Positions 4,268-55,575 of a DNA stretch of 64,000 nt are shown in pieces. A model generated the notes under the pieces. The model was given only the letters and a program-made list of their open reading frames with translations. It was not told where the DNA came from and did no database searches. How positions within the stretch are numbered: position 1 is the first letter of the stretch; every line of letters begins with the position of its first letter. Where the stretch lies: the IMG/VR virus record IMGVR_UViG_3300045988_182866. One strand, given 5' to 3'. Origin of the DNA: a virus. The translations under genes were made by a program, and so were the position numbers.

Positions 4268-6681
4268 TGACTAAAAAATATTATTCTACTAATGAATATT
4301 TTCTAATTGATCCGATTACAAAAGAACAAATACCTTATGAAGGCTATGTTCTTGTAGAAAATAATATTCCTTATACATTCGATGATAAAAAAGAACTAGT
4401 CATAGGTAATAATTATACAACAAAGATTAATTTATCTAATGATTTCTTTGATAGATTGTTAGATGTTGATCTTAAATTGCCTTATAATTTAGCTGATTGT
4501 ACTTTTGCAGCTAACGATTTCCTTAAAGCATCTGTTATTAATAAAATTATTAATAATTTAGAAGCAAATAACACCTATATCTTTAAAAATTGTCTTATTG
4601 CTCAAAATGACTTGCCTTTAAGCGAAAAAATCCCAGTTTTATCTCCCCATAGACCATTTGCTTCTGAAGATAAAACTGAATTTGGCCCGGTAGACGGATG
4701 GTTTTATTCCAACATATCTTATAGTACTCCCCAAAATATTTGGAATAAATTAGATTGGCCTGATACTGTTGAGGGTTATAATTGGGGAACTGAAGATATT
4801 ATTGATAGTATTGTTGTTCCAACTAATAAATTTACTGATAAGAAAGATGCCGATGGAAACCCAATGAAACTATATGCTGTTTTTATTGGAAGATCTACTT
4901 CTATTCAGCTGATGAACCTTTACTTATTTCCTTATGATGAATTACAGCAAAGTTCAGATCCTTTATTAAATGAAGGAGACCATGCTGAAGAATTAAATCA
5001 ACGAATGTTTGAAGAAATCTCTTCAATTAATAATCAAAATATTAGTGGTTCTAATGTCAATAATTTGAATATCTTTACATTTTCTAAAATTGATCCAAAT
5101 AACATTGACTCAGCTTCATTTAAAAATATTTCTGGAATAGCTTTAGATGGAAATTACTTGTATGTAATTGATAATCAGTTAAATGGTCTTTTTAAATATG
5201 ATATTTCCAAATGTTTATCTGATCGAGGAGCTGCAACAAATAGAATAATGCTTGTTGACCAAATTCAAGGTTTTGGAGATTTAAATCAGCCTTATCGATT
5301 TAATAATCCACAATCTATTGCGGCATTTGATAATACAATCACTGTCTTCGATAAAGGAAATAATGTAATCAAAGTTCTCGATAACTTCTTCAACCATAAA
5401 TTTACCATTCGTTCAGGCGGATTTATTCGTCAAAATACAAGAACAGTGTCAATTTGCCCTTATGAATTTATTCTTAATGAAGAAACTATAGAAAAAGGTT
5501 CAATTTGGGTAATTACTGAAGCTGCAGATAAAATTATTATTAATATTTTCTCTAATAAAGGAGAATACTTGGGTGATTATCAAGTTCTTTATCTTGAACT
5601 ACTTAAAACTTACTGGTATAATCCTGAAGATGGACAACCTTCTTCAGATGAGCCAATCTATAATCAAGAAATCGTTAAAAAAATTGATTTCTCATATAAT
5701 AATTCAAATTATTTCTATATTGTTACTAATAAACGAATTGTTAAATTTCAGCTGTCTAAATTAACTTATCCGATTGGAATTATTTCTTATTATTACCGTT
5801 CAATTACTCTCGACGATTTAGTTTGGGAAAATGTTTACATGCCCTGGGAAAATGTTCAAGACTTAGGGAATAATTTAATTCCTTGGGATTATGATCGTTC
5901 TACAGAATTATCCGCTTATCCTCAAAATGTTTGTTTTTCCATAACAGGAACTCCTGAATTAAATGAAGATGTTATTTTTAATATCATTGATAATAGAAGT
6001 TATTATGGACAAGGAAAGTTGCAAAGAGTAGATAATTACACAGATAATAAACTACTTTATTATGATAAGAACAGGAACTATACCTATCTTAAAATAAATC
6101 CGGAGGGAGGGGCTAACCCACCAGTTTTAGTGAATACAGGTGATATTGTAGATGAATACCGTCCTTCTGCTCAAAATACCCCGGAAAAAGTTGAAGGTAA
6201 AACATTTGTTATTAAAGAAGAGGAAGTTATTTCTAAGCTCCATAAGAATGTTATCCTTTTCTTTAAAGAACCGAATATTTTAAAGTCTTCTTTATTAAAA
6301 TCTGATATTAACGTTTATTCTGAAGAAGAATTAAGCTTTAAAGATAATCAAGAATACTATAATGTCCTTACATTTAATAAAATTCTTTATAAACTTTTCT
6401 TTAACTTATCAGAAATTAAGAAATATATCTTCGGAACATTTGTTGGAGGTTATAGTATTGACGGGTTGATGACTTATGACCATGTTAAGCCTGATTCATC
6501 TTTTCAGGAATTAGGTTCTGATAAAGAAAATTTCTTCATGGGAGAGAATGAGTTAACATCAATTATCCTTAATAGATGCTTTACCTCAATCTATAATACT
6601 CAAGTAAATATCATCAAGAAAATGCAGACTAGTTTTATTAGTACGCTTAACTATAACATTAATTCTTACCGAATCATCTAA
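4267..6681 (+). CDS. Large virion structural protein, putatively tail fibre or baseplate (804 aa).
   Basis: TAATG overlaps with both the upstream and downstream genes suggest translational coupling. The ORF is long, with fibre-like composition. Confidence 0.6.
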   Translation: MTKKYYSTNEYFLIDPITKEQIPYEGYVLVENNIPYTFDDKKELVIGNNYTTKINLSNDFFDRLLDVDLKLPYNLADCTFAANDFLKASVINKIINNLEANNTYIFKNCLIAQNDLPLSEKIPVLSPHRPFASEDKTEFGPVDGWFYSNISYSTPQNIWNKLDWPDTVEGYNWGTEDIIDSIVVPTNKFTDKKDADGNPMKLYAVFIGRSTSIQLMNLYLFPYDELQQSSDPLLNEGDHAEELNQRMFEEISSINNQNISGSNVNNLNIFTFSKIDPNNIDSASFKNISGIALDGNYLYVIDNQLNGLFKYDISKCLSDRGAATNRIMLVDQIQGFGDLNQPYRFNNPQSIAAFDNTITVFDKGNNVIKVLDNFFNHKFTIRSGGFIRQNTRTVSICPYEFILNEETIEKGSIWVITEAADKIIINIFSNKGEYLGDYQVLYLELLKTYWYNPEDGQPSSDEPIYNQEIVKKIDFSYNNSNYFYIVTNKRIVKFQLSKLTYPIGIISYYYRSITLDDLVWENVYMPWENVQDLGNNLIPWDYDRSTELSAYPQNVCFSITGTPELNEDVIFNIIDNRSYYGQGKLQRVDNYTDNKLLYYDKNRNYTYLKINPEGGANPPVLVNTGDIVDEYRPSAQNTPEKVEGKTFVIKEEEVISKLHKNVILFFKEPNILKSSLLKSDINVYSEEELSFKDNQEYYNVLTFNKILYKLFFNLSEIKKYIFGTFVGGYSIDGLMTYDHVKPDSSFQELGSDKENFFMGENELTSIILNRCFTSIYNTQVNIIKKMQTSFISTLNYNINSYRII

Positions 6682-8321
6682 TGGCTCAACAATTTTCATC
6701 TCTTATTAAATTTCGTCGTGGTTTAAAAGAACAGCGATTAAAAACTTCTTTCCAAGAAGGCGAACCTGTTTATGAAACAGATACAAAACGTTTATTCATT
6801 GGAGTAGGAGATAATAATGAAGCTTCTGTTGGTCCTGAAACAGTCGGTGGTATTATTACATCTAATTTAACTTTTATTGGGCCTGCTTCCAGTGATCCTT
6901 CTCCTGATACTGAGCCGCGGTCTTATTCCGGAGACTTAATGTATGCCAATAATAAGCTTTGGAGAATGGGAGACTCTAATTGGGAAGATATTTCTCCTAA
7001 AGTAGATGGGATTACTTTAGCATATAATGCAAATAATGAACTTCAGGTTCTTTCCGGAGCATTTTCTGTTACTGCCGGGAATGGTATCTCTATTACCTCA
7101 GGAAATACTGTCAATATTAAGAATTCTCCTCAAAATATTCTTCAAATTGTTAATGGTGAATTAACAATTCCTCAAGGAAGTATAACCGCCGATTATTTTT
7201 CTACTGAAACTTTTAGTTCTGACTATTTCACAATTATTGGATCTCTTATCCAAATTAATTTAGATCCTAATTATTTTTCTACGACTGGAAATATTAAAAT
7301 TACTAAAGTTCCAGCCGGTGAAAAGAATGATACATTAACAACTGTTGATAATAAACAAGTCGGTACTGTAAATGCTGTCATTACCAATCGTTTAGGAGAA
7401 AGTTCCGGTGGTATTACTCTTGATTCTAATTTAAATCTTCAAATTGATCCTCAAGTAACAGTCATTAATGATGAAACTAATCAAATCACAGGGTTAAAAC
7501 CTGGTATTGGTGATGTTTTAGCAGTGAATGATTCCACCTCTAAAGCCTATAATGGATCTATCTCTGATTATTTTGATGAAGATATTAAATGGACTGGTCA
7601 TGAAAGAACTGAAATAAGTCTTTTTGAAGAAGACCGGTTAAATGCACCCAATCCGATGACCGTTTTTTCTGGCGGCATGATTTTAATGGATATGGGGACT
7701 ACAAAAACCGGAAAAGGATATAAGCGGTATGCCGTCCCGGTTTTTGAATTACCGGAACCACCTGAAATTTATCATATTGAATTGGGAAGTGACAATACTC
7801 CAGGAAGTATTATCGGTGATAACCTTGGAGGAATTCGAGTATGGACCATAGAATCAAATACCAAGCCCATAGAAAATATAGTAGCAGGCAGTAGTATTGA
7901 TTTACTGCATGGGACAAATAGGTTAGAATTAACTTCACCTATTTCTATTCCTCCAGATGGACAAGTTATTGCTAAAAATTATATTGGTACACTTAATTTA
8001 GCGGATTATACTGCCAATAATCCAATTATTCGCCAGGTAACTTATGAAGGCTCAGGAACTCCTGTCACCAGTATTTCAATTGATATATTCAATGTTAATT
8101 CTACTAAAGCCAATTTTACAAAGGTAGAATATGCTTTAGTTTCAGCTCCTGAAACAAATATTAATATTCCAACATTTGATGTACAAGAGAATTCAGAATA
8201 TCCTGGAATTAATAGTTTTGTTAATGTATCAACTTGGCCTTCCGGAGCTCCTAACTGGGAAGATATTTCTTCTGTTACTGTAACTTACAGTGGAACAGTT
8301 ATCAAATATACTATTCACTAA
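6681..8321 (+). CDS. Virion structural protein, putative tail-fibre subunit (546 aa).
   Basis: TAATG overlap continues the operon. The protein is G/S/T-rich and repetitive in a beta-strand-like way. Confidence 0.55.
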   Translation: MAQQFSSLIKFRRGLKEQRLKTSFQEGEPVYETDTKRLFIGVGDNNEASVGPETVGGIITSNLTFIGPASSDPSPDTEPRSYSGDLMYANNKLWRMGDSNWEDISPKVDGITLAYNANNELQVLSGAFSVTAGNGISITSGNTVNIKNSPQNILQIVNGELTIPQGSITADYFSTETFSSDYFTIIGSLIQINLDPNYFSTTGNIKITKVPAGEKNDTLTTVDNKQVGTVNAVITNRLGESSGGITLDSNLNLQIDPQVTVINDETNQITGLKPGIGDVLAVNDSTSKAYNGSISDYFDEDIKWTGHERTEISLFEEDRLNAPNPMTVFSGGMILMDMGTTKTGKGYKRYAVPVFELPEPPEIYHIELGSDNTPGSIIGDNLGGIRVWTIESNTKPIENIVAGSSIDLLHGTNRLELTSPISIPPDGQVIAKNYIGTLNLADYTANNPIIRQVTYEGSGTPVTSISIDIFNVNSTKANFTKVEYALVSAPETNINIPTFDVQENSEYPGINSFVNVSTWPSGAPNWEDISSVTVTYSGTVIKYTIH

Positions 8322-9181
8322 TGTATAATCCCTTAAAATTACAATCCCCGGTAATTTTACCTCCGGAATCGATAAGTCAAAATTGGATTTCTAAAGAAAA
8401 TTTTGACTTAAAGGAAAACCTTACATTTTCATTTAAACTTAAATCTAGTAATACTTCAGATAAAGAATTGGGATTTTCTATTTTTCTTGTTAATTCTTCT
8501 AATACCGAATCTTTTGGAGCCAGCACAATTAGGTCTGGCTTGACCGATTATTCTACAAAAGGAGAAATTGGAGAAGGATTTAATAAAAATAATGAAAAAT
8601 TGTCCTTAAGATATAATAATATTCAATATGATTTTCTTTTGGACCATGTTTATCCTTATTCAATAAATGATTTGGCTTCTAACCAAAAACCATTTAATAC
8701 AGAAGAATTTCAAAATAATAATATTTTTAGTATTTTATTTGATTCCACAAAAGAATTTTATAAAAACCAGCTTGATTTTTATAAAAATGTTTATTTTGAT
8801 GAAGTACAAGTTAAAGATATTGTTACGGACCAAATTGTAGATCCTTCTACTTATAATTGTCCTATCTTTATTCAAGCTCTGCAAGATTTATATGTAGCCG
8901 AGTTTAAAACAGATCAAAATTTTGATATACTAAATTTAAATTCTGTAACAATTCGATTTTCTTTTGAAAATTATGGTAAATTGTTCAGAATGGATGTTCT
9001 TGAAGCTAATAGTACAGAATATAAAAATGTATGTTTAAAATATTTTGACCTTAATATGAGGCAATATCGTAATCTTAAGCTCGGATATGGAATTGCCAGT
9101 CCAATAATGACTTATAATACTGAAAATATTGCTGATTTTACTATTGATACTTTCCATATTCAAGGTAAGTTGAGAGAGTGA
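8321..9181 (+). CDS. Hypothetical structural protein (286 aa), the last gene of the plus-strand fibre operon.
   Basis: ATG overlaps the upstream stop as TAATG. The gene ends at a TGA that sits immediately upstream of the left inverted repeat of the invertible cassette. Confidence 0.5.
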   Translation: MYNPLKLQSPVILPPESISQNWISKENFDLKENLTFSFKLKSSNTSDKELGFSIFLVNSSNTESFGASTIRSGLTDYSTKGEIGEGFNKNNEKLSLRYNNIQYDFLLDHVYPYSINDLASNQKPFNTEEFQNNNIFSILFDSTKEFYKNQLDFYKNVYFDEVQVKDIVTDQIVDPSTYNCPIFIQALQDLYVAEFKTDQNFDILNLNSVTIRFSFENYGKLFRMDVLEANSTEYKNVCLKYFDLNMRQYRNLKLGYGIASPIMTYNTENIADFTIDTFHIQGKLRE

Positions 9182-9419
9182 AGGTACTTATACTATTCCT
9201 GCTCACGCTCCTCTTGATATAGAGGATCCTCAGACTAACCCATACAATAGTAAACTTATAATTGATGGAATGTCAGGAACTTTCTTCTGTTCTATCTATC
9301 AAGCTAATCCTCAAGCAATCGGATGTTTTCAACTTGTTAATACTTTTAACGAAACAGGCCATAAAAGATATAACGAAGCATTACAGTATGCAACCTATAA
9401 ATTAAACTTTAGTGGCTAA
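9174..9419 (+). other. Start-less alternative tail-fibre C-terminal exon (Sv'-like, 57 unique codons after the shared IR), silent in the present orientation.
   Basis: An open frame runs from the stop at 9171-9173 to TAA at 9417-9419 with no upstream ATG. Its first 23 codons are homologous to an internal segment of the 9535..11718 fibre gene, and the sequence then diverges. Confidence 0.4.
9177..9245 (+). repeat. Left inverted repeat (IR-L, 69 bp) of the putative invertible tail-fibre cassette.
   Basis: The repeat is 88% identical to the reverse complement of 9820-9888. The plus-strand frame encodes SEGTYTIPAHAPLDIEDPQTNPY. Confidence 0.8.
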
Positions 9420-9502
9420 ATAAATCAAAGTAATATGACTCCATGAGAAACTAGATCTTATTGCATATCTCTTTCTTATTTGATTAAAATAACTTTAAAT
9501 TT

Positions 9503-9536
9503 AAAAAAGCGGTGAGAACGTTCTCACCGCTTTTTT
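9503..9536. terminator. Bidirectional rho-independent terminator lying between the two facing fibre-tip exons.
   Basis: A perfect stem GCGGTGAGAA/TTCTCACCGC has an A-run on its 5' side and a T-run on its 3' side. It directly follows the stop of the minus-strand fibre gene. Confidence 0.7.
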
Positions 9537-11718
9537 ATTTAATTTTAATAAGATAGGTTAAAGATATGTTATAAGGTCTAGTTTCTTTGGGGGCAATAGG
9601 TCCTATTAGGTTACTTAGGTTTAATTCATATTGAACATTAGCAAAAGCCCAATGGTAATCTCTATGTTGTGATAAAAAGTTCGCTTCACTTAGATAAGTT
9701 TGAGAAAAAGCACCAGTTCCACCGACATATAATGGATAACGCTGTCCCCAATTTTGAGAACGAACACAAGTTTTAAAAGTACTTTTGGTTCCTCCTTCTC
9801 CTGAAAGGGAACTTAAGACATATGGATTAGTTTGAGGATCTTCTATATCAAGAGGAGTATGAGCAGGAATAGTATATGTACCTTCACTTGTAATAGTAGA
9901 AGATGTAGTGGAAGCACCTCGAATAAATCTATTTCTTAAGTCTGGCAAATTAAATTGTCCGCCTCCCCCAATTACTGTTAAATGTGAAGTAACTGGATGA
10001 GCCGTAGTATTAAAAGTAATTATAGCTAATCCTTGGCTTAATCGTAAAAATGGAATTCGCCATGGATTAGAATCAGACTCTAACCACCACTTAGACGGTA
10101 CATGGATGTTATAATATCCATCATTTTGAATAGTATAAGTATTTTGCTCATTAATGGTAGCTAACAGTGTACTATTTGTATAGATAGTAACAGGCAATGG
10201 TGTTCTTATGCCGTTCAATACAATACCAAGGCCTTGAGCAGTAATTACTGTTCCCTTCTTCAAATATAAAGACGGTTCATAATCATAAGCAGATTCGCCG
10301 CTTCTATTAATATTAAAGGGGGCAATATTTGTTGTTAATATTCCTTCAAGAACCAATGGTATATCGTTATAAGGCAAACTAGTTCCATCCAATACAAGGT
10401 AAAAATGCCTTTTAACACCTTCATTATCTGGATTCCAAGATTGCCAAACATCTAAATTAATTGATGTAATAGTATTAAAATTAAAAGTATATTGACCGCT
10501 TACAAATTGAGCTGTGTTAGTAACTTCTTCCGGACAATATAAAATATAATTAACATAGCCTTCAGAAAGTTCTACATATGTCCTAGCATTAGAACTATAT
10601 TTGGCATCTATAGTACATTCCATTTCAGGAACTGTTACATTTATTTTTGGTAATTGCTGAAATGTATTATTACCAGTAGCGGGAATCCATAAACAATAAA
10701 TTCCATCCTCGGGAATAATATAAGATCTGTTATCAACAGTAGAAATTAAAGGGCTACCGTCAACTCCAAAAGTTGATAAATTTAATTTTTCTTTATTATA
10801 GATATAAGCTTCGGATGCCCCGGCATTTCCAGCTAAAGTATATCGGGCTCCCTGAATTTGAACAACTGTGTTAGCGGGCAAATAGGCATATTCTGCGTGG
10901 GCAGCCTGATTTGGACTTTGCTCATAATTAATAGTTCTACCAGTTTGCCGCCAACTAATTTTTACAGATGGATTTTCAAATGTATCAGTAGTATTAAATT
11001 CAATATTACTAAATTGGAGTTCATTTTTAACTAGTTCAAAATCTAAATCTCCTTGAGCCTGTAAAGAATTTATTTCTAATTTGGTCAAAGTAGTAATATT
11101 ATTTTCATGAAATAAAGATGCTGCAATAATAGGAAGGCTTAGCCTTAATCTTTTATAAGATAATCTACTTGTACCGACTACCATTCGGTACAAATCAGGG
11201 AAATTATCAAAATTATATTCTTGCCCAGTTAATGAATGCCGATTTTGGCCATCGGCAAAATCATAATAATCCCTGAATCGCTGAGGAAGCAAATTAAGAT
11301 CTTTTTGGGCAATTGCAACCGGAATAACAGTGCCCACTGGAACAGTTTGCTCCATAATTTGATTATCGGTAACAAACTGTTTAATAATTTCAATTAAATC
11401 CTGATGCTCATAATTTCCGGCATTATCGCCGATGAGAATATTATTTTTAGCAGGAGCAACAGTAGGAACATTAGTTTGAGTGCCAAATGTAATCTTATCT
11501 CTTAATTGAGTTTGGCTGACAATTTCTTTTTGAACTTCAATATGTTCAGTACCAATAGACAATGCAGAATTATTACCCATTGAATCAGCAACAGGAACGG
11601 GTGTTAATCCAATACCAGTATCTGAACCGTCATCGGCCGGAGAAACACGTAAAATTCCTCGGAAAGATTTTGAAATTGGCTTTTTTGCTACGTCTCTATT
11701 GTTTTGTTCTGTTGCCAT
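9535..11718 (-). CDS. Tail-fibre protein carrying a T4 gp12-like (short tail fibre) C-terminal receptor-binding tip (727 aa).
   Basis: The C-terminus KETRPYNISLTYLIKIK matches the T4 gp12 C-terminus ETRPWNISLNYIIKVKE. A His-containing motif lies upstream of it. The ORF is long and rich in G, S, T and N. Confidence 0.75.
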   Translation of the reverse strand: MATEQNNRDVAKKPISKSFRGILRVSPADDGSDTGIGLTPVPVADSMGNNSALSIGTEHIEVQKEIVSQTQLRDKITFGTQTNVPTVAPAKNNILIGDNAGNYEHQDLIEIIKQFVTDNQIMEQTVPVGTVIPVAIAQKDLNLLPQRFRDYYDFADGQNRHSLTGQEYNFDNFPDLYRMVVGTSRLSYKRLRLSLPIIAASLFHENNITTLTKLEINSLQAQGDLDFELVKNELQFSNIEFNTTDTFENPSVKISWRQTGRTINYEQSPNQAAHAEYAYLPANTVVQIQGARYTLAGNAGASEAYIYNKEKLNLSTFGVDGSPLISTVDNRSYIIPEDGIYCLWIPATGNNTFQQLPKINVTVPEMECTIDAKYSSNARTYVELSEGYVNYILYCPEEVTNTAQFVSGQYTFNFNTITSINLDVWQSWNPDNEGVKRHFYLVLDGTSLPYNDIPLVLEGILTTNIAPFNINRSGESAYDYEPSLYLKKGTVITAQGLGIVLNGIRTPLPVTIYTNSTLLATINEQNTYTIQNDGYYNIHVPSKWWLESDSNPWRIPFLRLSQGLAIITFNTTAHPVTSHLTVIGGGGQFNLPDLRNRFIRGASTTSSTITSEGTYTIPAHTPLDIEDPQTNPYVLSSLSGEGGTKSTFKTCVRSQNWGQRYPLYVGGTGAFSQTYLSEANFLSQHRDYHWAFANVQYELNLSNLIGPIAPKETRPYNISLTYLIKIK
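9820..9888 (-). repeat. Right inverted repeat (IR-R) located inside the fibre gene, about 105 codons before its stop.
   Basis: It is the reverse-complement match of 9177-9245. It encodes SEGTYTIPAHTPLDIEDPQTNPY within the 9535..11718 gene. Confidence 0.8.
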
Positions 11719-11811
11719 GTTATAAAGCTTTCTTGTTTGAATATTTATTGAGATCCTCTACTGATTTAAATTTAAAATTAAATTCTAAATTAATCTTTAA
11801 AAATTAATATT

Positions 11812-11853
11812 AGAATAAAAGAAAAGACTCTGGAAATTTATCCAGAGTCTTTT
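11812..11853 (-). terminator. Rho-independent terminator downstream of the minus-strand gene 11864..12211.
   Basis: The stem AGACTCTGGA/TCCAGAGTCT (10 bp) has a 6-nt loop. On the minus strand it is followed by a T-rich tract. Confidence 0.55.
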
Positions 11854-11863
11854 AAAAATCATT

Positions 11864-12211
11864 TTAGAAATTATTTTCAAGAATTAAATCTTGTAATCCT
11901 GCAAAATATCTCTCATCAATATATTTTTTAATAGCTTTATGCGGTTTAGCTTTCTTAACGATATTATCAACTGTAAATTCCATATCTCGTTCATAATATT
12001 CGTCGCAAATTAAATTAATCGCTTCAATTAATAAAGCCCATCTTGTCAATAAAGGAAGAGTCATCTGAGTTCCGTCGTTAAATGTTACAACTTGTTTCTC
12101 TCTGGCCTCTAATTCTGCACCGGTCAATTTCTTATTTTTCATCTGAGTTAAACTTTTTAGTTGTTTTATATTTCTCAGATAATAAATCATACATATTATG
12201 TTCATCAACAA
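11864..12211 (-). CDS. Hypothetical protein. The true start is probably the internal Met near 12142, since the annotated 5' end overlaps the upstream gene by 80 bp.
   Basis: ORF track. The overlap with 12132..12569 disappears if the internal ATG (MKNKKLTG...) is used. Confidence 0.4.
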   Translation of the reverse strand: MLMNIICMIYYLRNIKQLKSLTQMKNKKLTGAELEAREKQVVTFNDGTQMTLPLLTRWALLIEAINLICDEYYERDMEFTVDNIVKKAKPHKAIKKYIDERYFAGLQDLILENNF

Positions 12212-12569
12212 TTTTTCCCTTTAATACTGGGAACATGTTGATATTAACGCGATATTCATTTTTACATTCAGGGCAAACAAATGTATTTTCTTCCTTGGAT
12301 AAATCAATAGGAACCGCGATTGTATTATGATTACAAGGACAATCAAAAACTACAGTATTCAGAGCTTGAATTTCTTCAACTCGCTGAGCTAGCTCTTCAT
12401 CAAGTTCTTTATATTTCTGTACAAACTCATTAATAGACTCCTCTTCTTCCTGCTCGAATTCTTCTCGTTCTTTATTGAGAAGGTTTACTTTCCGCTTGAT
12501 AAAGAAATAATAAACGGCAATATCCGCAATGAAAAGAAAAACGATTAATGATATGAATAATTCAGTCAT
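12132..12569 (-). CDS. Membrane-anchored protein with a coiled-coil segment and a C-terminal CPC...CPEC zinc ribbon (145 aa).
   Basis: An N-terminal hydrophobic helix (LISLIVFLFIADIAVYYFFI) is followed by an acidic coiled-coil stretch and then CPCNH...CPEC. Confidence 0.5.
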   Translation of the reverse strand: MTELFISLIVFLFIADIAVYYFFIKRKVNLLNKEREEFEQEEEESINEFVQKYKELDEELAQRVEEIQALNTVVFDCPCNHNTIAVPIDLSKEENTFVCPECKNEYRVNINMFPVLKGKIVDEHNMYDLLSEKYKTTKKFNSDEK

Positions 12570-15447: not shown

Positions 15448-16351
15448 CTGTAATGTCTAATCGATTAGCTAAAGTAGAGTACCAATAGTCAATTTTTCTG
15501 TAAATATTCCAGAATTCAAGTTCTTTTATAAGAAGAGTAAAATTTTCCTTATTTGCCTCAGGTGTTTCACTAATACATTTTTCATAATGCTCTTCCTCTT
15601 CAGTAGAAATAAGATTATAATCAAATTTCATCATCTTTAAATTATGTTTAAAAATTTCTAATTCTTCTTCCTTTAATAGGGAAGAATCCTTAAGAGAATC
15701 TATATCATAATCAATCTTAAGAAGAGAAATAATATCTTGAATCCTGGTTGACCTAATTCCCTTAACACCGCTAATATTATCTGCTCGGTCACCCCTGAGA
15801 GCTTTGAAAATTATGTATTCAAAACCATTATTAACATTATAATAATCTTTAAGATATAATTCAGTTATAGACTGTTTCTTTTTAGGATTATAAATGATAT
15901 TTCCTGGAAAATCTGAGCCAATTAACTGATAAAAATCAGTATCAGTTGAAACTACAATACTTTGGTTGGGATATTTTTTCATCGCTAACCAAAAAATAAT
16001 ATCATCCGCTTCTAAATTAATAGGATTGATTTGAATAATGCCCAAAGAATTCAACAATTCCATAATTACTGGCATATATTCATATACTTCTTTATTCTTA
16101 ATTTCATCCCGCTGAGCTTTGTACTCAGAATCTAGCATTTTTCTAAAATTATAGCAGTCTTCTTTTCTATAATCCCATACACAAATAACTTTTTTAGGAG
16201 AAAATAATTCAACTAAAGATTTAAGAGAATTAAGAAATAGATAAATGTGAGAAGTTGGTGTAGATTTTTCTAATACTTTTGAAACATGGAAAACTCTATG
16301 CAACAAATTATTAGCATCAATTATTAAGTTCTTCTGTGTAGAATTTCTCAT
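15410..16351 (-). CDS. rnh: RNase H / 5'-3' flap exonuclease (T4 rnh-like, FEN family).
   Basis: The EADDIIFW motif and the acidic clusters typical of FEN/5'-3' exonucleases are present. Size is 313 aa. Confidence 0.8.
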   Translation of the reverse strand: MRNSTQKNLIIDANNLLHRVFHVSKVLEKSTPTSHIYLFLNSLKSLVELFSPKKVICVWDYRKEDCYNFRKMLDSEYKAQRDEIKNKEVYEYMPVIMELLNSLGIIQINPINLEADDIIFWLAMKKYPNQSIVVSTDTDFYQLIGSDFPGNIIYNPKKKQSITELYLKDYYNVNNGFEYIIFKALRGDRADNISGVKGIRSTRIQDIISLLKIDYDIDSLKDSSLLKEEELEIFKHNLKMMKFDYNLISTEEEEHYEKCISETPEANKENFTLLIKELEFWNIYRKIDYWYSTLANRLDITDVISSLFDFETE

Positions 16352-16394
16352 AAAATTTATTATACATTATCCTCAATAATCGACGGTGAAATTA

Positions 16395-16718
16395 TTATTT
16401 TCTATTAGCAAATAAATCGTTTATAAAGTTCTTTTTATTTTTTTCTGTTTCTAAAAATTGTAATTTAATAACCTCAAATACTTCGTCTGGCAATTTCTCG
16501 ACAAAAGTAATATAAGGCTCTACTACAAAATCTGTAGCTTTATCAAGAATAGTCTCTTCCTTTGCTTTTTCTAAATCTTTCTTATCCAAAATAAGAATTT
16601 TAAAAGAACCGGGAATTACAAGAAATTCATTGTATCTGCCATTTTTTCTGACAAATACAATGAATTTCCCAGTATATTTTCCTCGATTTATTGCGTAACA
16701 ATTACCTGGAAGTTCCAT
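16395..16718 (-). CDS. Hypothetical protein (107 aa).
   Basis: ORF track, lying inside the replication gene cluster. Confidence 0.4.
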   Translation of the reverse strand: MELPGNCYAINRGKYTGKFIVFVRKNGRYNEFLVIPGSFKILILDKKDLEKAKEETILDKATDFVVEPYITFVEKLPDEVFEVIKLQFLETEKNKKNFINDLFANRK

Positions 16719-18504: not shown

Positions 18505-19455
18505 TTAGTTAAGATCAGCGGTTTGTCCATTCAAATAAGCTTCAAGCTCATTCAAGTCAACTTCAGTTGGTTCAGTTGGTTCAGTCGATTCAGAAGAACT
18601 AATTGTCTCAGTCTTGACTGGTTCTTCTCGAGTAAAAGAAGGAATCGGATCCATGCCAACAACAGAAGTAGGAGCAGAAATAGGAGCTACTTTAGCCGTA
18701 GTATCTGGATTAGCCCCCAAGAAAGTTGTCATAAACAACTTCTCAAGTTCAGAAACTTCCATATTTCGTTCAATAGCAGTCAAATCATGTGCTTGCTGAA
18801 GAATCGTATCAATATCAGCCTCACTCAAACCAAGATCACGCTTACGACGAACAAAAGTGGAAGATTTATAAGAAGTAAAATCACCTTGAGGTTCAGCATT
18901 AATATTAAGATTAATACCATCGGCAGAAAGGTCAAAAATTGCCTTCCTCATATCCTCAACATCAAATTCTTCAACAAATTTTTCCTTCTTCTTAGGATCA
19001 TCAGAACAAGCTTCTTCAATAATGTTCTGAAGTTGACGTCCGGCTTGAAGAATCTTAACCTTACCATTATTTTCAGGATTTACTGGATCATTTACAACAT
19101 AAACATTATAATACCAGGATTCCTTATAGTTAAGGCGCTTATCAACATCCTTAAACAAGGCTTCATTACCAGAATTCTTTACCTTAAAATAATATTCAGT
19201 AATAGGGCAAGCTTCGCCATAGGTGCGAGGAGAAAGAACATAAGTCCAGCGACCATCCTTAATAGACCTCCAAGAATACTGGAAAAAATGGAAAATAGAC
19301 TTATGATAGCCAGCACGTCCTTCCTTTACATAAGGAAGAAGACGAACAAGATATTCATTACCAGCTTTAAAAGAAAGCTTTTCAGTATAAAGGCCTTTTT
19401 TAGTATTAGAAGCAAAAAGTTCAGCCGAGGATTGGAAAAAATCATTTAGATTCAT
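18505..19455 (-). CDS. Single-stranded DNA-binding protein, T4 gp32-like.
   Basis: YYNVYVVNDPVNPENNGKVKIL matches the T4 gp32 segment ILVVKDPAAPENEGKVFKY. The acidic C-terminal tail has PTE repeats. Size is 316 aa. Confidence 0.7.
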   Translation of the reverse strand: MNLNDFFQSSAELFASNTKKGLYTEKLSFKAGNEYLVRLLPYVKEGRAGYHKSIFHFFQYSWRSIKDGRWTYVLSPRTYGEACPITEYYFKVKNSGNEALFKDVDKRLNYKESWYYNVYVVNDPVNPENNGKVKILQAGRQLQNIIEEACSDDPKKKEKFVEEFDVEDMRKAIFDLSADGINLNINAEPQGDFTSYKSSTFVRRKRDLGLSEADIDTILQQAHDLTAIERNMEVSELEKLFMTTFLGANPDTTAKVAPISAPTSVVGMDPIPSFTREEPVKTETISSSESTEPTEPTEVDLNELEAYLNGQTADLN

Positions 19456-25182: not shown

Positions 25183-26295
25183 TTATTCTTCAATTAATTC
25201 TTCTTCAGTTTCTTCCTCTGGAATATCATGGGCTGAATAACCCCATGCTTCAGGTAAGCGTCGTTCAATTTCAGGATAAATTTTTTCATCCCAAAGCTCT
25301 TTCTTCTTTCGGAAAGCTTTAGCATAACCAAGAGATGTTCCGTCATAAAGATCATAAACACTTCCCCGACGTTCGATAACACCAAGGTTGATTGCTAATT
25401 CAAGTGTTCCATATTCTTCATCCAAACCAGTCTTCCAGCTAAGGTACATAGAACCCTCAATCATTGGACGAATGAAACGATTCTTAACACACATACAACG
25501 CATTTCAATACCAGCAATTCCCTTACCAACTTCATCCTTTTCACCAGAATCTTTTTCTTTAAGATTCTTTTTAGCAAGCTGGACAACTACAGAAGGAAGA
25601 TAACGGCAAGCTTTGCCGCCATTCATGCACTTAACCAAATCTGGGTACATTTCATTTGGATTATCATAAATATGGTTAGTAACCACAAATGTAGTTTTGG
25701 TTAAGCCCCCGTATGTTGTACAAGTTTTCAATAAAGATTTAATTGCCTTTGCAATTGTACCCATATCTGCGGAAGTAGAATCTTTATCCATTCTCTTTGT
25801 TTCCATTTCAGAAAGCATATTTGCAAGAGAATCAATAACTACAAGAAACTTTCCTTCCATGTGTGTTTCTTCAATCTTTTGAAGAAGAGCAAAAATTGCA
25901 TTTCGAACTTGCTCAATGGATTTAGCTGGGAAATACTTAATCTTCTTTGGATCGGCTCCAAGAGATTCAACCATTCTAGCATCAATAGCATTTTCAGTAT
26001 CGAATACTACAGTATACATTCCCATTTTCTGAGCATTTCCCACAATTTTTTGAGCGATAAAGCTCTTACCAGATGCGCTTTCCCCGGCTAAAAGGGTTAC
26101 GCGCCCTTTTGGAATTCCTCCATATAATGATCCAGAAATTACTGCGTTAAGCATCTTGCTTCCTGTATCAATCCACTCATCTACATTAGAAAGAGTGGAT
26201 TGATCTAAGAAAGAAGAATAAGGACTATAATCATCCAATACATCAAAAACTTTTGATGCAAGTTTATTAATATCAACTTTTTCTTCTTCTGCCAT
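25183..26295 (-). CDS. uvsX: UvsX/RecA-family recombinase.
   Basis: Walker A reads GESASGKS. The VVIDSLANM and TNHIYD segments parallel the T4 UvsX segments FIDSLGNL and INHTYE. Confidence 0.85.
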   Translation of the reverse strand: MAEEEKVDINKLASKVFDVLDDYSPYSSFLDQSTLSNVDEWIDTGSKMLNAVISGSLYGGIPKGRVTLLAGESASGKSFIAQKIVGNAQKMGMYTVVFDTENAIDARMVESLGADPKKIKYFPAKSIEQVRNAIFALLQKIEETHMEGKFLVVIDSLANMLSEMETKRMDKDSTSADMGTIAKAIKSLLKTCTTYGGLTKTTFVVTNHIYDNPNEMYPDLVKCMNGGKACRYLPSVVVQLAKKNLKEKDSGEKDEVGKGIAGIEMRCMCVKNRFIRPMIEGSMYLSWKTGLDEEYGTLELAINLGVIERRGSVYDLYDGTSLGYAKAFRKKKELWDEKIYPEIERRLPEAWGYSAHDIPEEETEEELIEE

Positions 26296-30692: not shown

Positions 30693-32501
30693 TTAAATGG
30701 TGATTCTTTTTGTAATACCATTATGCTTGTCTAATTGAATAATTTCACCGATTCCAGCTTTAAAGAAATCAGGCTTATGAGAAATGAGATAAATCGCCTG
30801 GTCTTCTTTCTGGGCAAATTCTTCTAAAATATTACAAACAATTTCCGAGTTAGTTTTATCCAAAGAAGAATCAAGAATTTCATCATAAAAAGAAACGTTG
30901 TAACTTACGGAACCTTGCAATTTAAGAATATCTCTAAATGCCCATATACAAGCTAAGTCTAGCATTTTAGATTCAGCACCGGAAAGATTTCCATAACTTA
31001 CCATAATTCCTCTTTTATTGAGAATTTCTTCTTCAAATACTTCATTAAATGATAATGAATATTGAGAATTCTGCTTAGTGAGATAATACTTGATTCTAAA
31101 ATTCAGTAAATCAAGAAGCTTTTTAATAATATAAGCCCTGATACCTTCTTCAGAAAGAATAAATCTTGCAATTTCAAATTTAGCTAAAGAAGCATTAATG
31201 TCTTTAATAACTTCTTCTTTTTTGGCTTTTTCTTTTTCGGCTTTTTCAATTAAATCTTTGAATATATCTTTTTCTTCAGATTCCTTCTCATGAACCTGGT
31301 ATTGTTTTAAAAGATCTTCTTTTAATTTTAAAGTATCAGTCTCAGCTTTAATGGCTGACTTATTATTGCTAATTTCCCATTCTAAATCCCTTAACTGGTT
31401 TAACTCTTTTTGCTTCTTTTGCTGAATATCCTGAGCTAGGGCAATAAGTTTGTTTAATTTTTCTTTTTCTTCTTCTTTCTTTAGAAGTTTATCTTGAAGT
31501 TCTTTAATAGAATGTTTAATTTCAATTTGATCTTTATCAGTAAATGGGCGGTTACATTCGGCACAAACTGGACCAAACTTTAATAAGGTATCAATTTTTT
31601 CAGATATAGTCTTTTTTTCATTCTTAATAGCTCCTAAATCAGCAGCTATTCTTATTTGGGCTTCCCGAGTCTTTCCTATATCATTTTTAATAGCATTTAA
31701 AATACTCTCGGAAACCTTTATTTTAGAAAGTCTAGCTTCCTCTTCCTTTAATTTAGAAATCTTTAAGGAAATTTTATGAATATCTTTTTCAATAATTTGT
31801 TTCTCAAGTTCTTTCTTTTGTTTTTGATTGGCAATTCTCTCCAACTCTTTCCTTTGTTTAGAAGTATAATCAAAAATATTAGAATTAATTTGTTCTACAA
31901 GTTTAGATTCTATGTCAAGTTCTCTTTTAGAGATATTAATATCATCCTTAACAAGCTTAAACATTTGAGTTACTACATCAAGATTAAAAAGACTTTCAAT
32001 AAACTTCTTTTTATCAGTCTTGCCCTGGCTCATAAATGGAATTGTATTATTTGCCTGCATGGCAATACAATTCTTAAAAACCTCTTGAGATGTAGAAAGA
32101 ACCTCTAAAATATAAGTTGTCGTATTAGGAATACTATCTCTTGTTTTATCCCTCCCGTCCTTGAATACCTTTAAAGAAGACGGATTTAATTCTCGAATAA
32201 TCTTAAAATTATTATTTCCCTTGGTCGAATTACAGTTAAATTCAAGAATAACTTGAGTTGTTCCTTTAACCAAATTATTAGGAATATTCCTAATTGCTAA
32301 ATCTTTTAGAGTTTTTCCAAAAATAGCAAAAGAAAATGCCGCAACGATAGAACTTTTGCCAACACCATTTTTAGTGCCCGGTACATCAGAATTTGTACCA
32401 GTGATGAAATTAACACCTGGTTTAAATTCAATTACAACAGACTCTTCACCAATCGATAAAAAGTTTTTAATTTGAATTTTTTTAAATGTTATAAACTTCA
32501 T
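30693..32501 (-). CDS. Recombination ATPase, Rad50/SbcC family (T4 gp46-like).
   Basis: N-terminal Walker A reads GTNSDVPGTKNGVGKSS. A long coiled coil carries a CAEC zinc hook. The C-terminal signature is LSGAESKMLDLA followed by Walker B DEILDSSLD, which parallels T4 gp46. Confidence 0.85.
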   Translation of the reverse strand: MKFITFKKIQIKNFLSIGEESVVIEFKPGVNFITGTNSDVPGTKNGVGKSSIVAAFSFAIFGKTLKDLAIRNIPNNLVKGTTQVILEFNCNSTKGNNNFKIIRELNPSSLKVFKDGRDKTRDSIPNTTTYILEVLSTSQEVFKNCIAMQANNTIPFMSQGKTDKKKFIESLFNLDVVTQMFKLVKDDINISKRELDIESKLVEQINSNIFDYTSKQRKELERIANQKQKKELEKQIIEKDIHKISLKISKLKEEEARLSKIKVSESILNAIKNDIGKTREAQIRIAADLGAIKNEKKTISEKIDTLLKFGPVCAECNRPFTDKDQIEIKHSIKELQDKLLKKEEEKEKLNKLIALAQDIQQKKQKELNQLRDLEWEISNNKSAIKAETDTLKLKEDLLKQYQVHEKESEEKDIFKDLIEKAEKEKAKKEEVIKDINASLAKFEIARFILSEEGIRAYIIKKLLDLLNFRIKYYLTKQNSQYSLSFNEVFEEEILNKRGIMVSYGNLSGAESKMLDLACIWAFRDILKLQGSVSYNVSFYDEILDSSLDKTNSEIVCNILEEFAQKEDQAIYLISHKPDFFKAGIGEIIQLDKHNGITKRITI

Positions 32502-32769
32502 TATCAGCCAACTTTTCTAAAATCTTTTTCTTATTTTTAACCTTTTGCTTATGCTTCTTTACAAATGAAAAACATTTTGAATAAAACTTACATTCATTCT
32601 TTGAACAATTACAATGAGGCCACCAATCATTTCTGCAAAATGGTAATTCTTTCCAAGAATTTTTATGAGCACCTCCATGTACTCCATCTCTTTTATCCCG
32701 GGACATTAGAAATCTCTCTATATTTCTTTTGCAAATATTGCAATACTTCTTTTGGATTAGGAACATCAA
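32482..32769 (-). CDS. Small Cys/His-rich ORF overlapping the junction of the gp47-like and gp46-like genes; tentative call.
   Basis: The 95-aa product has about 8 Cys and 4 His. It overlaps the 3' end of the gp47-like gene by 77 bp in another frame, so it may be spurious. Confidence 0.25.
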   Translation of the reverse strand: MMFLIQKKYCNICKRNIERFLMSRDKRDGVHGGAHKNSWKELPFCRNDWWPHCNCSKNECKFYSKCFSFVKKHKQKVKNKKKILEKLADNEVYNI

Positions 32770-33730
32770 GCAAACCGATATATTCTTTAATTGCTTCCAT
32801 TAATTCTAAAGCAACAAAATCAGTTTTTGTATCAATAGCAGAAGAAAATCCTTTATTATCCCAGTCAATATCGCATTCCAGAGGCTGACAAGATGACAAT
32901 AATTTAATAAGTTCATCCATGTCATCTACAGTAATATTCTTATCAATCGCCAGTCGAAGATAATTATTAACAATTTCTTTACCAATCTTAGAAGGTTCTT
33001 TTCTAATTAGGGAAGAAAGAGTCATCTTAATAAATTTAGGAGAAATCTCATTATAATGATAAGAATATTTTCCTGTATCTACATCAAGAATAATAAAACC
33101 TTTCTTATCTCCCGCCTCTCCATAGTTCATCTGAAAAGGATTACCTACATAAACAATAGATCCAGATGAATATTTTCTAAACTGGGCTTTATGAAAATGC
33201 CCAGAAAAAATACTATTAAATTTCTTCAATAGATCAGATAATTTAAAACCTTCTTCACAAAGATGCTCAGATGAATTCATTTGAAACGTATTAATCTCAA
33301 AATGACCGAACAAATAATCAGAAGATTCAATTTCTGGATTTAACGGATTAAATCCCCATGGACAAAGAGTAATACTTTTATCCCCGATATTCAATCTGGC
33401 AGGCTTATCATAATATTTGATATTATTATATCCTTGAAAAATAGAAGTAGAAGATACTTCAGTGCTTCCGGAAAAATACAAATCGTGATTACCTGGAAAT
33501 ATATGAATAGAAAAATCCTCCAATAACCGGAGGATTTTTGCTGTTGAATTCAAAGTATAAACATCTACCGAATTTCTGTTATGAAACCAGTCTCCAAGAA
33601 AAAATACATCTTTAATATTTTTCTCTTTGAGAGTTTTAACCATATCTTGGATAAATTCAACTGCAACACTATGCCAATGTTGATTATCTCCTTTAATTCC
33701 AAGATGTAAATCAGAAAAAATTGCTATCAT
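32693..33730 (-). CDS. Recombination nuclease, Mre11/SbcD family (T4 gp47-like).
   Basis: Phosphoesterase motifs read SDLHLG, GDWFH and GNHDL, as in T4 gp47. Size is 345 aa. Confidence 0.85.
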   Translation of the reverse strand: MIAIFSDLHLGIKGDNQHWHSVAVEFIQDMVKTLKEKNIKDVFFLGDWFHNRNSVDVYTLNSTAKILRLLEDFSIHIFPGNHDLYFSGSTEVSSTSIFQGYNNIKYYDKPARLNIGDKSITLCPWGFNPLNPEIESSDYLFGHFEINTFQMNSSEHLCEEGFKLSDLLKKFNSIFSGHFHKAQFRKYSSGSIVYVGNPFQMNYGEAGDKKGFIILDVDTGKYSYHYNEISPKFIKMTLSSLIRKEPSKIGKEIVNNYLRLAIDKNITVDDMDELIKLLSSCQPLECDIDWDNKGFSSAIDTKTDFVALELMEAIKEYIGLLDVPNPKEVLQYLQKKYREISNVPG

Positions 33731-33795: not shown

Positions 33796-34977
33796 TCATT
33801 CCGCAATAAAAACCTTATTTCCTACATCCCATATCCGGTCCCAACCGTTTGCACTCATATTTTCATATTCAGATAATTTAAGATCAAAATAATTCAAAAG
33901 ACGCGGTAATTTATGTTTTTGAAATTGAACTCGGCTTTTTCGTTGAAGAGAATTATCTTTAAAATAAAAGTAATTCGGGTCAGCATCATGAATCTCCTTA
34001 AATCCAATTTGTCGATAAAGCTGACCTTGGGACCATCGACGATCGGCATATGTAATTACACTGCCTGCATTATTTCTACGAAAATATTCAAACAACTTGG
34101 AAGCTCCTCCAATTACTGTAAAATTAGCAACTGTACAATAGCGAATCAGTTCATAATCATATTTCTTGTTAAACCTGGATTTATTAAAAGTCATTACAGC
34201 CACCATGCGATTCTTATAAAATAATCCCAGATTAATGGAAGAAGCGTAAGTTCCTTGAATATGATATTTTAAAATAAATGGCTTAACTTGCTGATAAGTC
34301 AATTCGCGAACTTTACATTTACGAGCATAGATCTTTCCGGAAGTAATTCCAAGAAGATGACGAATACGGGCCTTAACAATCTGCGGCTTCAATTCCCATT
34401 CATCTTCGAATACATGAATTAACCGTACTCCTTTTTCTTCACACTTATTTGTTTCAGTCAAATGGTACCGTTTAGTAAATCCATTTCGTTCACAATGTCC
34501 TGAAAGGGAATCAAACTCAAAAGCAATCTTCTTATCTGGAATATGAATAGCAATAGTATAAGGAGCTGCTAACTCTTTATCATTCTCAATAATCCGGCCA
34601 TTATAAACACTTTTAATATAATTTATAAAATTATTATAAGACTCAGGGTTAGATACCGGCTCAACAATAGGAGCTGGTTCTTTTTTAGAAGACGTGGAAA
34701 CTTTTTTAATTTTTTCCTTCTTTTGCTTTGGTTCTTTTGGAGCTTTGGACACTTTAGGCTCTGTATTTTTCCTTAATGCTTCAATAGCACATTGCCTGCA
34801 TCCATACTTGGAACGTATAAAATGCTGGGTTAAACAAAAGAAAGATCCATGATCCTTGCAAATAATTTCAACCGGTTTCCTGTTACTTTGATAATCAACT
34901 TTAGAGTAATCAAATTGATCTCCAAATTTTTCAAGGCAGAATTTAATAAAAGCTTCCTTACGTTGTTCTTTTTTCAT
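33796..34977 (-). CDS. Homing-endonuclease-like protein. One N-terminal zinc-ribbon module is followed by a DUF559/Vsr-like segment and a C-terminal domain of unknown family.
   Basis: The N-terminal module FDYSKVDY...IICKDHGSF...YGCRQC is shared with the paralogs at 36864..37547 and 60588..61517. The internal IAFEFDS..H segment is DUF559-like. Confidence 0.55.
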   Translation of the reverse strand: MKKEQRKEAFIKFCLEKFGDQFDYSKVDYQSNRKPVEIICKDHGSFFCLTQHFIRSKYGCRQCAIEALRKNTEPKVSKAPKEPKQKKEKIKKVSTSSKKEPAPIVEPVSNPESYNNFINYIKSVYNGRIIENDKELAAPYTIAIHIPDKKIAFEFDSLSGHCERNGFTKRYHLTETNKCEEKGVRLIHVFEDEWELKPQIVKARIRHLLGITSGKIYARKCKVRELTYQQVKPFILKYHIQGTYASSINLGLFYKNRMVAVMTFNKSRFNKKYDYELIRYCTVANFTVIGGASKLFEYFRRNNAGSVITYADRRWSQGQLYRQIGFKEIHDADPNYFYFKDNSLQRKSRVQFQKHKLPRLLNYFDLKLSEYENMSANGWDRIWDVGNKVFIAE

Positions 34978-36863: not shown

Positions 36864-37547
36864 TTATATTTTTTTCTGAGAATGCTCATAACTTACTTGA
36901 GAATAATCATAAAGAGTACCATGAACTTTTCTTGCTTTCTGAATAAAATCTTCAGTCGTTACTAACTCTTTATTTCCACATTTTGGACAACCACACCCAT
37001 TAAGATGGGAATTAGGTGTTTGCTGAAATATATGTCCACACTTTTTACATTTAATTTTTACCTTAACTTTATTACCCTGGTAATCCACTTCAGAATAATC
37101 AAATTTATCACCGTGTACTTTACTAGCTTTTTCAATAAATTCTTTAGTTGTAGATTTATTGTTATTAGAGCAAAAAGGACATCCAAAACCTTTCATATGG
37201 CTTTGTGCCTGCTGTTCAAATATATGCCCACATTTTTTACATTTAATTTTTACTTTAAGCTTATTGCCTTGATAATCTACTTCAGAATAATCAAATTTAT
37301 TGCCATGAACTTTTTGGGACTTTTCAATAAATTCTTTAGTTGTTAGCTTCTTAACACCAGCACATTCTAAACATCCGCATCCCTGGACATGGCTATAAGC
37401 TTTTTGCTGAAAAGAACCGTGAATAGGACATATTATTGTTATGACATTATGAGCTCCTGTATAAAAAGTCTCAGAATAATCATATTTGTTTCCATGAACC
37501 TCTGTACATTCTTTAATAAATTGCTCATTTGATTTTAATTTTGCCAT
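36864..37547 (-). pseudogene. N-terminal fragment of the IS-disrupted homing-endonuclease-like gene (3.5 tandem zinc-ribbon modules).
   Basis: The module pattern HGxK(Y/F)DYSxVxY...K(V/I)xIxCxxHGxFxQ...H(L/M)xGxGCPxC recurs. The ORF ends mid-module at the IS insertion point. Confidence 0.7.
36960..37343. repeat. Tandem direct repeat, 2 x 192 bp, encoding duplicated zinc-ribbon modules.
   Basis: Residues 69-132 and 133-196 of the ORF are near-identical (TTKEFIEK(S/A)(Q/S)KVHG(N/D)KFDYSEVDYQGNK(L/V)KVKIKCKKCGHIF...). Confidence 0.7.
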
Positions 37548-55362: not shown

Positions 55363-55575
55363 ATGAAAACAAACTCACTTCCCCAACAATATAAATCCGA
55401 ACCATTAAAACACATAAAGGAAGACGATGATTCGATTTATAAATTTTATCAACAATCATATCTTTTGAAAGATCCACAGTTTGTAGAAGCTATAAAAAAG
55501 AGTCCAGAATATTTAGATCTTGTTGAGTCAGTAGAAAATTTTTTGACTGAATTAAGAAATCACAATCACAAATAA
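55363..55575 (+). CDS. Hypothetical small protein (70 aa).
   Basis: ORF track. Confidence 0.3.
   Translation: MKTNSLPQQYKSEPLKHIKEDDDSIYKFYQQSYLLKDPQFVEAIKKSPEYLDLVESVENFLTELRNHNHK

Follow-up and report, generated by a model that had tools for sequence, protein, structure and literature searches.

Organisation of the tail-fibre locus

The window examined here, a stretch of 64,000 nucleotides from the IMG/VR virus record IMGVR_UViG_3300045988_182866, contains a short-tail-fibre-like gene whose 3' end lies within a pair of inverted coding repeats, an arrangement that we interpret as an inversion switch for the tip of the fibre. The fibre gene is a 727-aa open reading frame (ORF) on the minus strand (9535-11718) and is composed of a constant part (9889-11718, codons 1-610) with the tail-collar motif FNLPDLRNRFIRGAS at its end, next to the repeat, the right repeat arm (IR-R, 9820-9888, minus strand, codons 611-633), and the expressed tip, designated V1 (9535-9819, minus strand), which comprises the last 94 codons plus the stop and ends KETRPYNISLTYLIKIK. 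The left arm of the repeat (IR-L, 9177-9245, plus strand) has the sequence SEGTYTIPAHAPLDIEDPQTNPY and leads into a silent and degenerate tip cassette, the N-tip (9246-9500, plus strand), which was recognised by reading its frame and by comparison with intact relatives. The frame through IR-L has no start codon and opens one codon upstream of the repeat, after a TGA at 9171-9173. The two convergent tips are separated by a bidirectional intrinsic terminator at 9502-9537, whose 36 nt form a perfect palindrome (16-bp stem) with A and T runs on its sides.

To the left of the silent cassette lies a 286-aa ORF (8321-9181, plus strand), the last gene of a plus-strand tail/baseplate block, which has no assigned function and no match in Pfam or PHROG. 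Its TGA stop (9179-9181) falls inside IR-L, in a different frame from the repeat peptide. This ORF adjoins the silent cassette in every relative; inversion leaves it unaltered, and it forms the fixed edge of the switch on the left.

Over their 69 nt, the two repeat arms differ at 7 positions (62/69, 90% identity), six of which are synonymous third-position differences and one of which exchanges Ala for Thr. Translated in its own strand, each arm yields SEGTYTIPAH(A/T)PLDIEDPQTNPY. Delimited as a 68-nt inverted repeat (9177-9244 versus 9821-9888), the arms are 91% complementary and lie 576 nt apart. No other inverted repeat in the 64 kb comes near this pair in strength, and in a 69-mer search allowing up to 3 mismatches, shuffled sequences gave an expectation of 0.00 chance matches. 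An initial annotation of this DNA had described the 69-bp inverted repeat, the peptide common to its arms, the position of IR-R inside the fibre gene, the start-less frame at IR-L, and the terminator between the facing tips, all of which are upheld here; small numerical differences apart, its count of eight mismatches (88% identity) being corrected to 7. Its statement that the silent frame diverges completely after the repeat needs qualification, as a decayed copy of the C-terminal motif shared by both tips persists there. It is because the decayed silent tip keeps this motif of the expressed tip that a second inverted repeat (9446-9499 / 9533-9586) is present between the arms.

Both orientations of the segment in related phages

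Relatives were recovered from IMG/VR and from metagenomes with a degenerate pattern of the repeat, and four segments of the window were compared with them by BLAST, namely the end of the 286-aa ORF (A), the silent tip (B), the expressed tip (C), and the constant part of the fibre (D). Most relatives share the window order A-IR-B-T-C-IR-D, where T is the terminator, and the inner segment is reversed in two loci, L006 and L007. In both of these, the N-tip (the repeat followed by NSKLIIDGMSG..., 106 aa) is joined in frame to the constant part, with 625 open codons upstream of the fusion in L007, and the V-tip (the repeat followed by VLSSLSGEG..., 116-117 aa) sits beside the stop of the 286-aa ORF. 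The V-tip and the N-tip have a common ending, (K/R)ETRPYNI(S/A)L.YLIK.K.

A search at the protein level returned 120 cluster representatives of the fibre from gut metagenomes, 84 of them ending in a V-tip (78 V2 and 6 V1) and 36 in an N-tip, and all 120 are full-length with the tip in frame with the same constant part. Identity between the constant parts of N and V proteins reaches 100%, and the N forms are spread over three sublineages or more. Across independent assemblies, 18 loci carry the V-expressed (parental) junctions and 10 the N-expressed (inverted) junctions. Between L022 (V) and L016 (N), the flanks are 100.000% identical across 3908 + 1701 nt, and a 719-nt segment that includes the repeats is reversed with a single mismatch, with the breakpoints lying within the two 69-nt arms. 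A second flipped pair, L024 and L008, is similar to the first. In natural populations of this phage, the repeat-bounded segment thus occurs in either orientation, and each gives a fibre that is intact and of full length.

The silent copies were also compared with the expressed ones. Silent cassettes are intact in 14 of 21 cases for N and in 5 of 5 for V2, and wherever the partner tip is V2 or N; counting silent and expressed copies, the intact 106-aa N-tip was found elsewhere 14 and 10 times, respectively. Samples ERZ27288474 and ERZ28436929 are among those with an intact-cassette strain. Purifying selection acts on the cassettes whether they are silent or expressed, with a ratio of nonsynonymous to synonymous polymorphism (pN/pS) of 0.19-0.21 for N, where the two states give 0.21 and 0.20, and of 0.06 for the V2 tip. 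As the silent cassettes are under purifying selection, they must be expressed often enough to be selected. On these sequence comparisons, it is very likely that the lineage possesses a functional switch that inverts to exchange the tip of the fibre, and the exchange of tips by inversion proposed in the initial annotation is borne out there by the L022/L016 pair.

It was also considered that the two orientations might be assembly artefacts caused by the repeat, or that the repeat might be part of a diversity-generating retroelement. Assemblies break systematically at the switch locus: four short contigs from independent metagenome assemblies (L018-L021) end 35 nt past the fibre stop, within the 36-nt palindrome, and three others (L003, L011, L017) terminate within the 69-nt repeat, as might be expected where assemblers struggle. 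However, the inverted junctions are present in MEGAHIT k119 and k141 contigs, and as k-mers of these lengths span the whole 69-nt repeat, misassembly of these junctions is unlikely. In addition, both fusions are perfect ORFs across dozens of independent samples, and purifying selection on both cassettes is at odds with either explanation. The argument for a retroelement draws on a 546-aa ORF two genes upstream of the switch (6681-8321, plus strand), whose N-terminus has a weak Mtd_N-like match (E = 2e-5, under the Pfam cut-off). Mtd_N is, however, an N-terminal fibre domain, and since neither the window nor the flanks that were screened yielded a reverse transcriptase family, the match probably reflects such a shared domain. 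The arm mismatches (T/A, C/T, and G/A at synonymous sites) are likewise not adenine-specific, as opposed to what a retroelement would leave. We consider this pair of explanations extremely improbable.

Decay of the silent cassette in the window

In the window, the silent N-tip is open as far as a TAA at 9417-9419, where intact alleles have CAA, and carries a second nonsense codon, TGA at 9444-9446, where intact alleles have CGA; the normal terminal stop is absent. Past the nonsense codons, a decayed C-terminal motif, ETRSYCISLSYLIKI, can be read at 9447-9491 (...NMTP*ETRSYCISLSYLIKI, with asterisks denoting stops). Intact N-tips of relatives read ...KLDFS(G/S)QVSQN(D/N)MTPRETRPYNISLAYLIKVK*, and the window N-tip reads ...KLNFSG*INQSNMTP*ETRSYCISLSYLIKITLNLKK. 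The related alleles form a decay series, in which L042 has the TGA only, the window together with L038, L039, L040, and L041 has both TAA and TGA, and L001/L004 has an extra TAG inside IR-L, L001 being a 98%-identical relative.

The decayed cassette (pseudo-N) is consistently paired with the V1 tip allele, and among the loci compared, V1 is never silent and decayed N is never expressed. The arms of the window, with 7/69 mismatches, are among the most diverged. One locus, L041 (ERZ27244347 k141_378912), combines the same V1 and pseudo-N allele and the same two nonsense codons with a constant part only 76% identical to that of the window at the protein level, from which it follows that the invertible segment moves as a unit between backgrounds by recombination.

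From these codon changes, the silent cassette of the window can be called degenerate with good confidence. A flip in the window genome would therefore produce a truncated fibre without the conserved C-terminal strand, and not a switch of host range, so the predicted exchange of fibre tips, which holds for the lineage, would fail in the window itself, where two nonsense codons are present and the proper end is lost. The window itself is a degenerate example of the switch and is probably a relic locked on V1.

The same observations could be taken to mean that the window has no functional switch at all, with the IR-L segment being the decaying leftover, now without a role, of a fibre tip that was duplicated long ago in inverted orientation. 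The two nonsense codons and the lost stop, the third nonsense codon in IR-L of L001, the divergence of the window arms, and the fact that the window allele is known in one orientation only are all compatible with such a leftover. It would nevertheless apply just to the V1 allele family, carried by 6 of the 120 cluster representatives, and decayed remnants in relatives, which the initial annotation had envisaged as evidence against a switch, were found only in the allele family comprising L042, the window, and L001. As the segment is intact, selected, and flipping in the rest of the lineage, the window is better described as a recently disabled switch than as an accidental duplication; moreover, 62/69 identity is left between its arms, so that physical inversion may still happen. 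An inert leftover of this kind is accordingly improbable.

Search for a recombinase and mechanism of inversion

In order to identify the driver of inversion, recombinases were sought over approximately 139 of the approximately 203 kb of the genome (about 69%). The initial annotation had reported no serine invertase in the window and had suggested a search beyond it, and both searches were negative over the part covered. Pfam searches of the roughly 60 window ORFs gave no Resolvase or Phage_integrase match, and no serine or tyrosine recombinase was found within approximately 65 kb to the left or 64 kb to the right of the switch. All stop-to-stop frames of 60 aa or longer over the same 139 kb were also searched by phmmer with Mu Gin, Hin, and lambda Int; Gin and Hin gave E > 0.6 throughout, and the precomputed Pfam annotation within 10 kb on either side in relatives held no PF00239-type or integrase match. 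A lambda Int match on a 146-aa ORF (E = 0.02-0.03, 6.7 bits) was weak and without Pfam support and was set aside. When sites of the gix, hix, or cix type were sought, the Mu 34-bp repeat, gix, and hix scored against the 69-nt repeat like shuffled sequence. A TnpB gene (35661-36773) and the homing-endonuclease genes of the phage were dismissed as drivers because they do not encode strand-exchange recombinases.

The arms themselves carry a record of recombination. In eight genomes the arms are identical at 69/69 positions, across two different haplotypes, while in the same genomes the last 17 codons of one tip, which are no less conserved, differ from those of the other at 10-12 of 51 nt, which indicates that concerted evolution, and not coding constraint alone, keeps the repeat identical. 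The coding constraint that was initially proposed for the arms is thus insufficient by itself. One arm haplotype is shared by the D-C, D-B, and A-B contexts, and by a four-gamete test on 49 arms, the repeat must contain three or more disjoint intervals of recombination, which argues against one fixed crossover. Outer sites of the repeat tend to track the flank, and inner sites track the tip. Judged from these patterns of sequence variation, homologous recombination acts on the repeat arms.

The phage has a complete set of T4-type recombination genes. The candidate driver is a UvsX/RecA-like recombinase (25183-26295, minus strand; Pfam RecA, 1e-17), and its partners in inversion may include gp32 (18505-19455; Pfam, 2e-14), a Rad50/Mre11-like gp46/47 pair (30693-32501 and 32693-33730; Pfam AAA_23/SMC_N and Metallophos), and a possible UvsW-like helicase (38173-39675; Pfam ResIII/Helicase_C). 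T4 recombination reportedly requires only about 50 bp of homology (Singer et al., Cell 1982), and the 69-bp repeat is slightly above this length. That homologous recombination drives the inversion is the favoured, if unproven, explanation, with the balance leaning modestly towards it.

Alternatively, a dedicated site-specific recombinase, encoded in the remaining genome or by the host, might act on a core within the repeat such as the 10-bp palindrome GAGGATCCTC, in which case the remaining 69-bp identity would reflect coding constraint together with background gene conversion. To our knowledge, every inversion characterised so far that swaps fibres relies on a serine invertase (Mu G/Gin, P1 C/Cin, e14 P/Pin, and p15B Min). 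Alignment of the arms for a dyad-symmetric core, as suggested in the initial annotation, did reveal this palindrome and a TCCTC-N8-GAGGA dyad; the flips are also precise and reciprocal, with sequence neither gained nor lost, and approximately 64 kb of the genome lies outside the screen. However, the invertase gene adjoins the segment in the known systems, whereas none was found here within about 65 kb on the left or 64 kb on the right, and the similarity of the repeat to gix and hix is not above chance. The repeat is two to three times the length of an invertase site, its breakpoints are distributed over at least three intervals, and homogenisation of whole arms is impossible for a fixed 2-bp crossover. 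The palindromic core is itself polymorphic, with GAG or GAA at repeat position 48. A site-specific enzyme as the driver is for these reasons considered unlikely.

Comparison with T4 gp12 and known inversion systems

The 727-aa fibre matches PHROG 523 (tail collar fibre) with E = 1e-6 and the Pfam family S_tail_recep_bd with E = 0.003 (18.3 bits, under the 23.8-bit cut-off). Its best PDB matches are to T4 gp12 (1OCY and 1PDI) at E = 0.05-0.3, including E = 0.05 for the C-terminus against 1OCY, and because these values are marginal, the likeness to gp12 rests on motifs and context. LPDLRNRFIRG of the fibre aligns with LPDMRGLFVRG of T4 gp12, and ETRPYNISLTYLIKIK aligns with ETRPWNISLNYIIKVK. In common with T4 gp12 (1OCY, 1H6W, 1PDI), the fibre has an LPDLR.RF.RG collar motif ahead of the head and almost the same C-terminal strand, ETRP(Y/W)NISL.Y(L/I)IK(I/V)K, and the surrounding genome encodes a T4-type portal, gp13, gp15, sheath, baseplate, and terminase. 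In contrast to T4 gp12, the HxH zinc motif is not evident in the window fibre, and T4 has one fixed head domain without a cassette. AlphaFold2 models of the two tip modules reached a pLDDT of only 36 and 32.

Host-range switching by DNA inversion is textbook biology for temperate phages with Gin-type invertases. As in Mu G and its counterparts (P1/P7 C, e14 P, p15B Min), inversion at the locus described here determines which of two convergent 3' parts is joined to the constant 5' part of a fibre gene, the part left out has neither promoter nor start codon, and the outcome would be an alternative receptor specificity, by analogy with gp12. Mu G spans 3 kb, includes the chaperone genes U and U', and is bounded by 34-bp repeats with 26-bp gix sites, with gin adjoining. 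The window segment, in contrast, is 0.58 kb long and consists of two heads of 83-94 codons and a terminator only, its repeat is 69 bp of coding sequence, and the phage is a lytic-type T4-like myovirus, whereas Mu-type carriers are temperate phages or plasmids. The description of the locus as G-segment-like is therefore retained for layout and outcome, with both orientations seen in relatives, and is not retained for family membership, given that no Gin/Hin enzyme was found within about 65 kb to the left or 64 kb to the right, that the repeat has no gix/hix-like site, and that the segment has no chaperone genes.

No account of such a switch, whether from a T4-like phage of the virulent type or from an uncultured, dominant phage of the gut, appeared in the literature searched. 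In T-even phages, recombination at conserved motifs of gp37/gp38, reportedly described by Tetart and colleagues in 1998, is alike in that modules are exchanged at repeats, possibly without a dedicated recombinase, and is unlike in that this adhesin swapping involves separate genomes, with no reversible switch inside any one of them. Milman et al. (2023, PMC9881135) described a broader class of gene-altering programmed inversions, or intragenic invertons, in bacterial genomes, with prophage genes for tail fibres and tail collars among them, and in these, as here, inversion within the coding sequence exchanges one C-terminal variant of a specificity protein for another. Families enriched in that survey included tail fibres and "phage tail collar", and it covered bacterial chromosomes only; the enriched neighbour families included Mpi-type serine and tyrosine-type DNA invertases. 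The window locus fits this class, and differs in that its carrier is a free gut phage of very high abundance and that no recombinase was found near it. In Anabaena cyanophages, a segment of approximately 30 kb flips between repeats of 400-700 bp, with the inversion credited to the repeats and to recombination-prone replication, possibly without a dedicated recombinase; the part of that preprint drawn on here describes no gene recoding (bioRxiv 10.64898/2026.02.14.705889).

Phage identity and genome context

The window is 100.000% identical across 14,267 nt to ENA contig ERZ918900 k127_19295 (202,854 bp), from a human gut metagenome, and related contigs cluster at 195-205 kb. The phage is a deeply divergent T4-type myovirus. 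Window genes include Portal_T4 (4e-85), gp13, gp15, gp32, a DnaB-like helicase, a family B polymerase, UvsX/RecA, the gp46/47-like pair, and a 5'-3' exonuclease, and a T4-type terminase, sheath, baseplate, prohead protease, topoisomerase, ligase, and thymidylate synthase are encoded outside it. The portal is approximately 27% identical to those of cultured T4-like phages. The locus had no match at the DNA level in the GenBank phage collection, and the repeat pattern had no match in one genome per bacterial species, which leaves no hint of the host. The phage is extremely common, with one of its proteins indexed in 1355 blocks of the assembly collection.

Several other features of the genome were recorded. 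The TnpB-like gene (35661-36773, minus strand) lies in the replication module and matches Cas12f1-like_TNB (3e-16), a RuvC-like domain, and OrfB_IS605, with no TnpA partner among the tested ORFs. Copies of DUF723/DUF4379 treble-clef zinc-finger (homing-endonuclease-like) genes and a SegE-type GIY-YIG gene are dispersed through the genome, at 33796-34977, 36864-37547, 60588-61517, and 41298-41762 in the window, at 706-1806 and 5551-6684 in L049, and at 11684-12397, 16005-16481, and 16573-17124 in L140; for one of these scattered homing-endonuclease-like genes, related sequences are present in over 75 IMG/VR contigs that are otherwise unrelated. Sulfur-assimilation-like auxiliary genes are found approximately 2-4 kb to the right of the window end (L035, 12502-14168), encoding a 408-aa protein with GTP_EFTU and PAPS_reduct domains and a 146-aa APS-kinase-like protein, and are followed by a second fibre gene (792 aa, Phage_fiber_2) with a TnsA-like endonuclease gene adjoining.

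Approximately 55 kb to the left of the window, PspA/IM30-like, SPFH/Band-7, and GroEL-like (Cpn60_TCP1) genes lie in a row (L137 16727-17407, 18471-19523, and 20163-20834; L140 10004-11608). Within the window, a 105-aa ORF (55566-55883, minus strand) has an exact counterpart in relatives with a precomputed weak CRISPR_Cas2 Pfam match, and a 646-aa protein (42657-44597, plus strand) has a C-5 cytosine methylase domain (2e-23) confined to its first 120 or so residues, the remaining 500 or so being without Pfam match.

Proposed working of the switch and its significance

In the proposed mechanism, two convergent tip cassettes, each without promoter or start, sit inside the 69-bp inverted repeat with the terminator between them, and the repeat encodes the 23 residues linking the tip to the constant shaft. 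Recombination of the arms would flip the segment of approximately 0.58 kb, such that either the V-tip or the N-tip becomes the final 83-94 codons of the fibre gene and the unused tip is parked, untranslated, at the stop of the upstream ORF. The motif ETRPYNISL.YLIK.K is shared by both tips, presumably since that C-terminal strand docks onto the constant collar. In most strains, both cassettes are intact and the switch would be in use, and in the window allele (V1 with pseudo-N), the alternative has been lost through nonsense mutations, probably leaving the fibre locked on V1. The likeliest driver would be the T4-type UvsX, gp32, and gp46/47 of the phage, acting on 69 bp of homology with no dedicated invertase. 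Taken as a whole, the account of a gp12-like fibre-head inversion switch that has decayed in the window and has homologous recombination as its likeliest driver is one that we hold at slightly better than even confidence. The more specific proposal of an invertase-free programmed inversion, in which the 69-bp coding repeat doubles as protein hinge and minimal UvsX-type substrate and toggles the fibre head as bet-hedging, is put forward tentatively and falls a little short of even.

Several points weigh against this account. N and V forms were sought in one sample, and the matched pairs came only from different samples; contigs that break inside the repeat are no more than a hint that both orientations coexist in a population. 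The remaining 31% or so of the genome (approximately 64 kb), or the host, may supply a recombinase, for which the palindrome and dyad within the repeat offer a possible core, and general recombination operating beside a site-specific enzyme could also yield mosaic, homogenised arms. That the two tips bind different receptors is a prediction from the analogy to gp12, and the truncated 80-aa N-tip of the window may keep a residual function.

Approximately 30% of the related fibre protein clusters bear the alternative tip. The compact design of the locus, with a hinge repeat, a head domain, and a shared C-terminal strand, is a blueprint for exchanging receptor-binding heads of the gp12 type, and the decay series records how a switch degenerates after one state has been fixed. 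If general recombination on a short coding repeat drives the flip, phase-variable receptor binding would be evolvable without the acquisition of a recombinase, and searches for invertons that demand a nearby invertase would overlook such switches. A lytic T4-like phage that is among the most widespread in the human gut would, if inversion proceeds without an invertase, toggle between two specificities, and strains of the window type would illustrate the loss of the switch.

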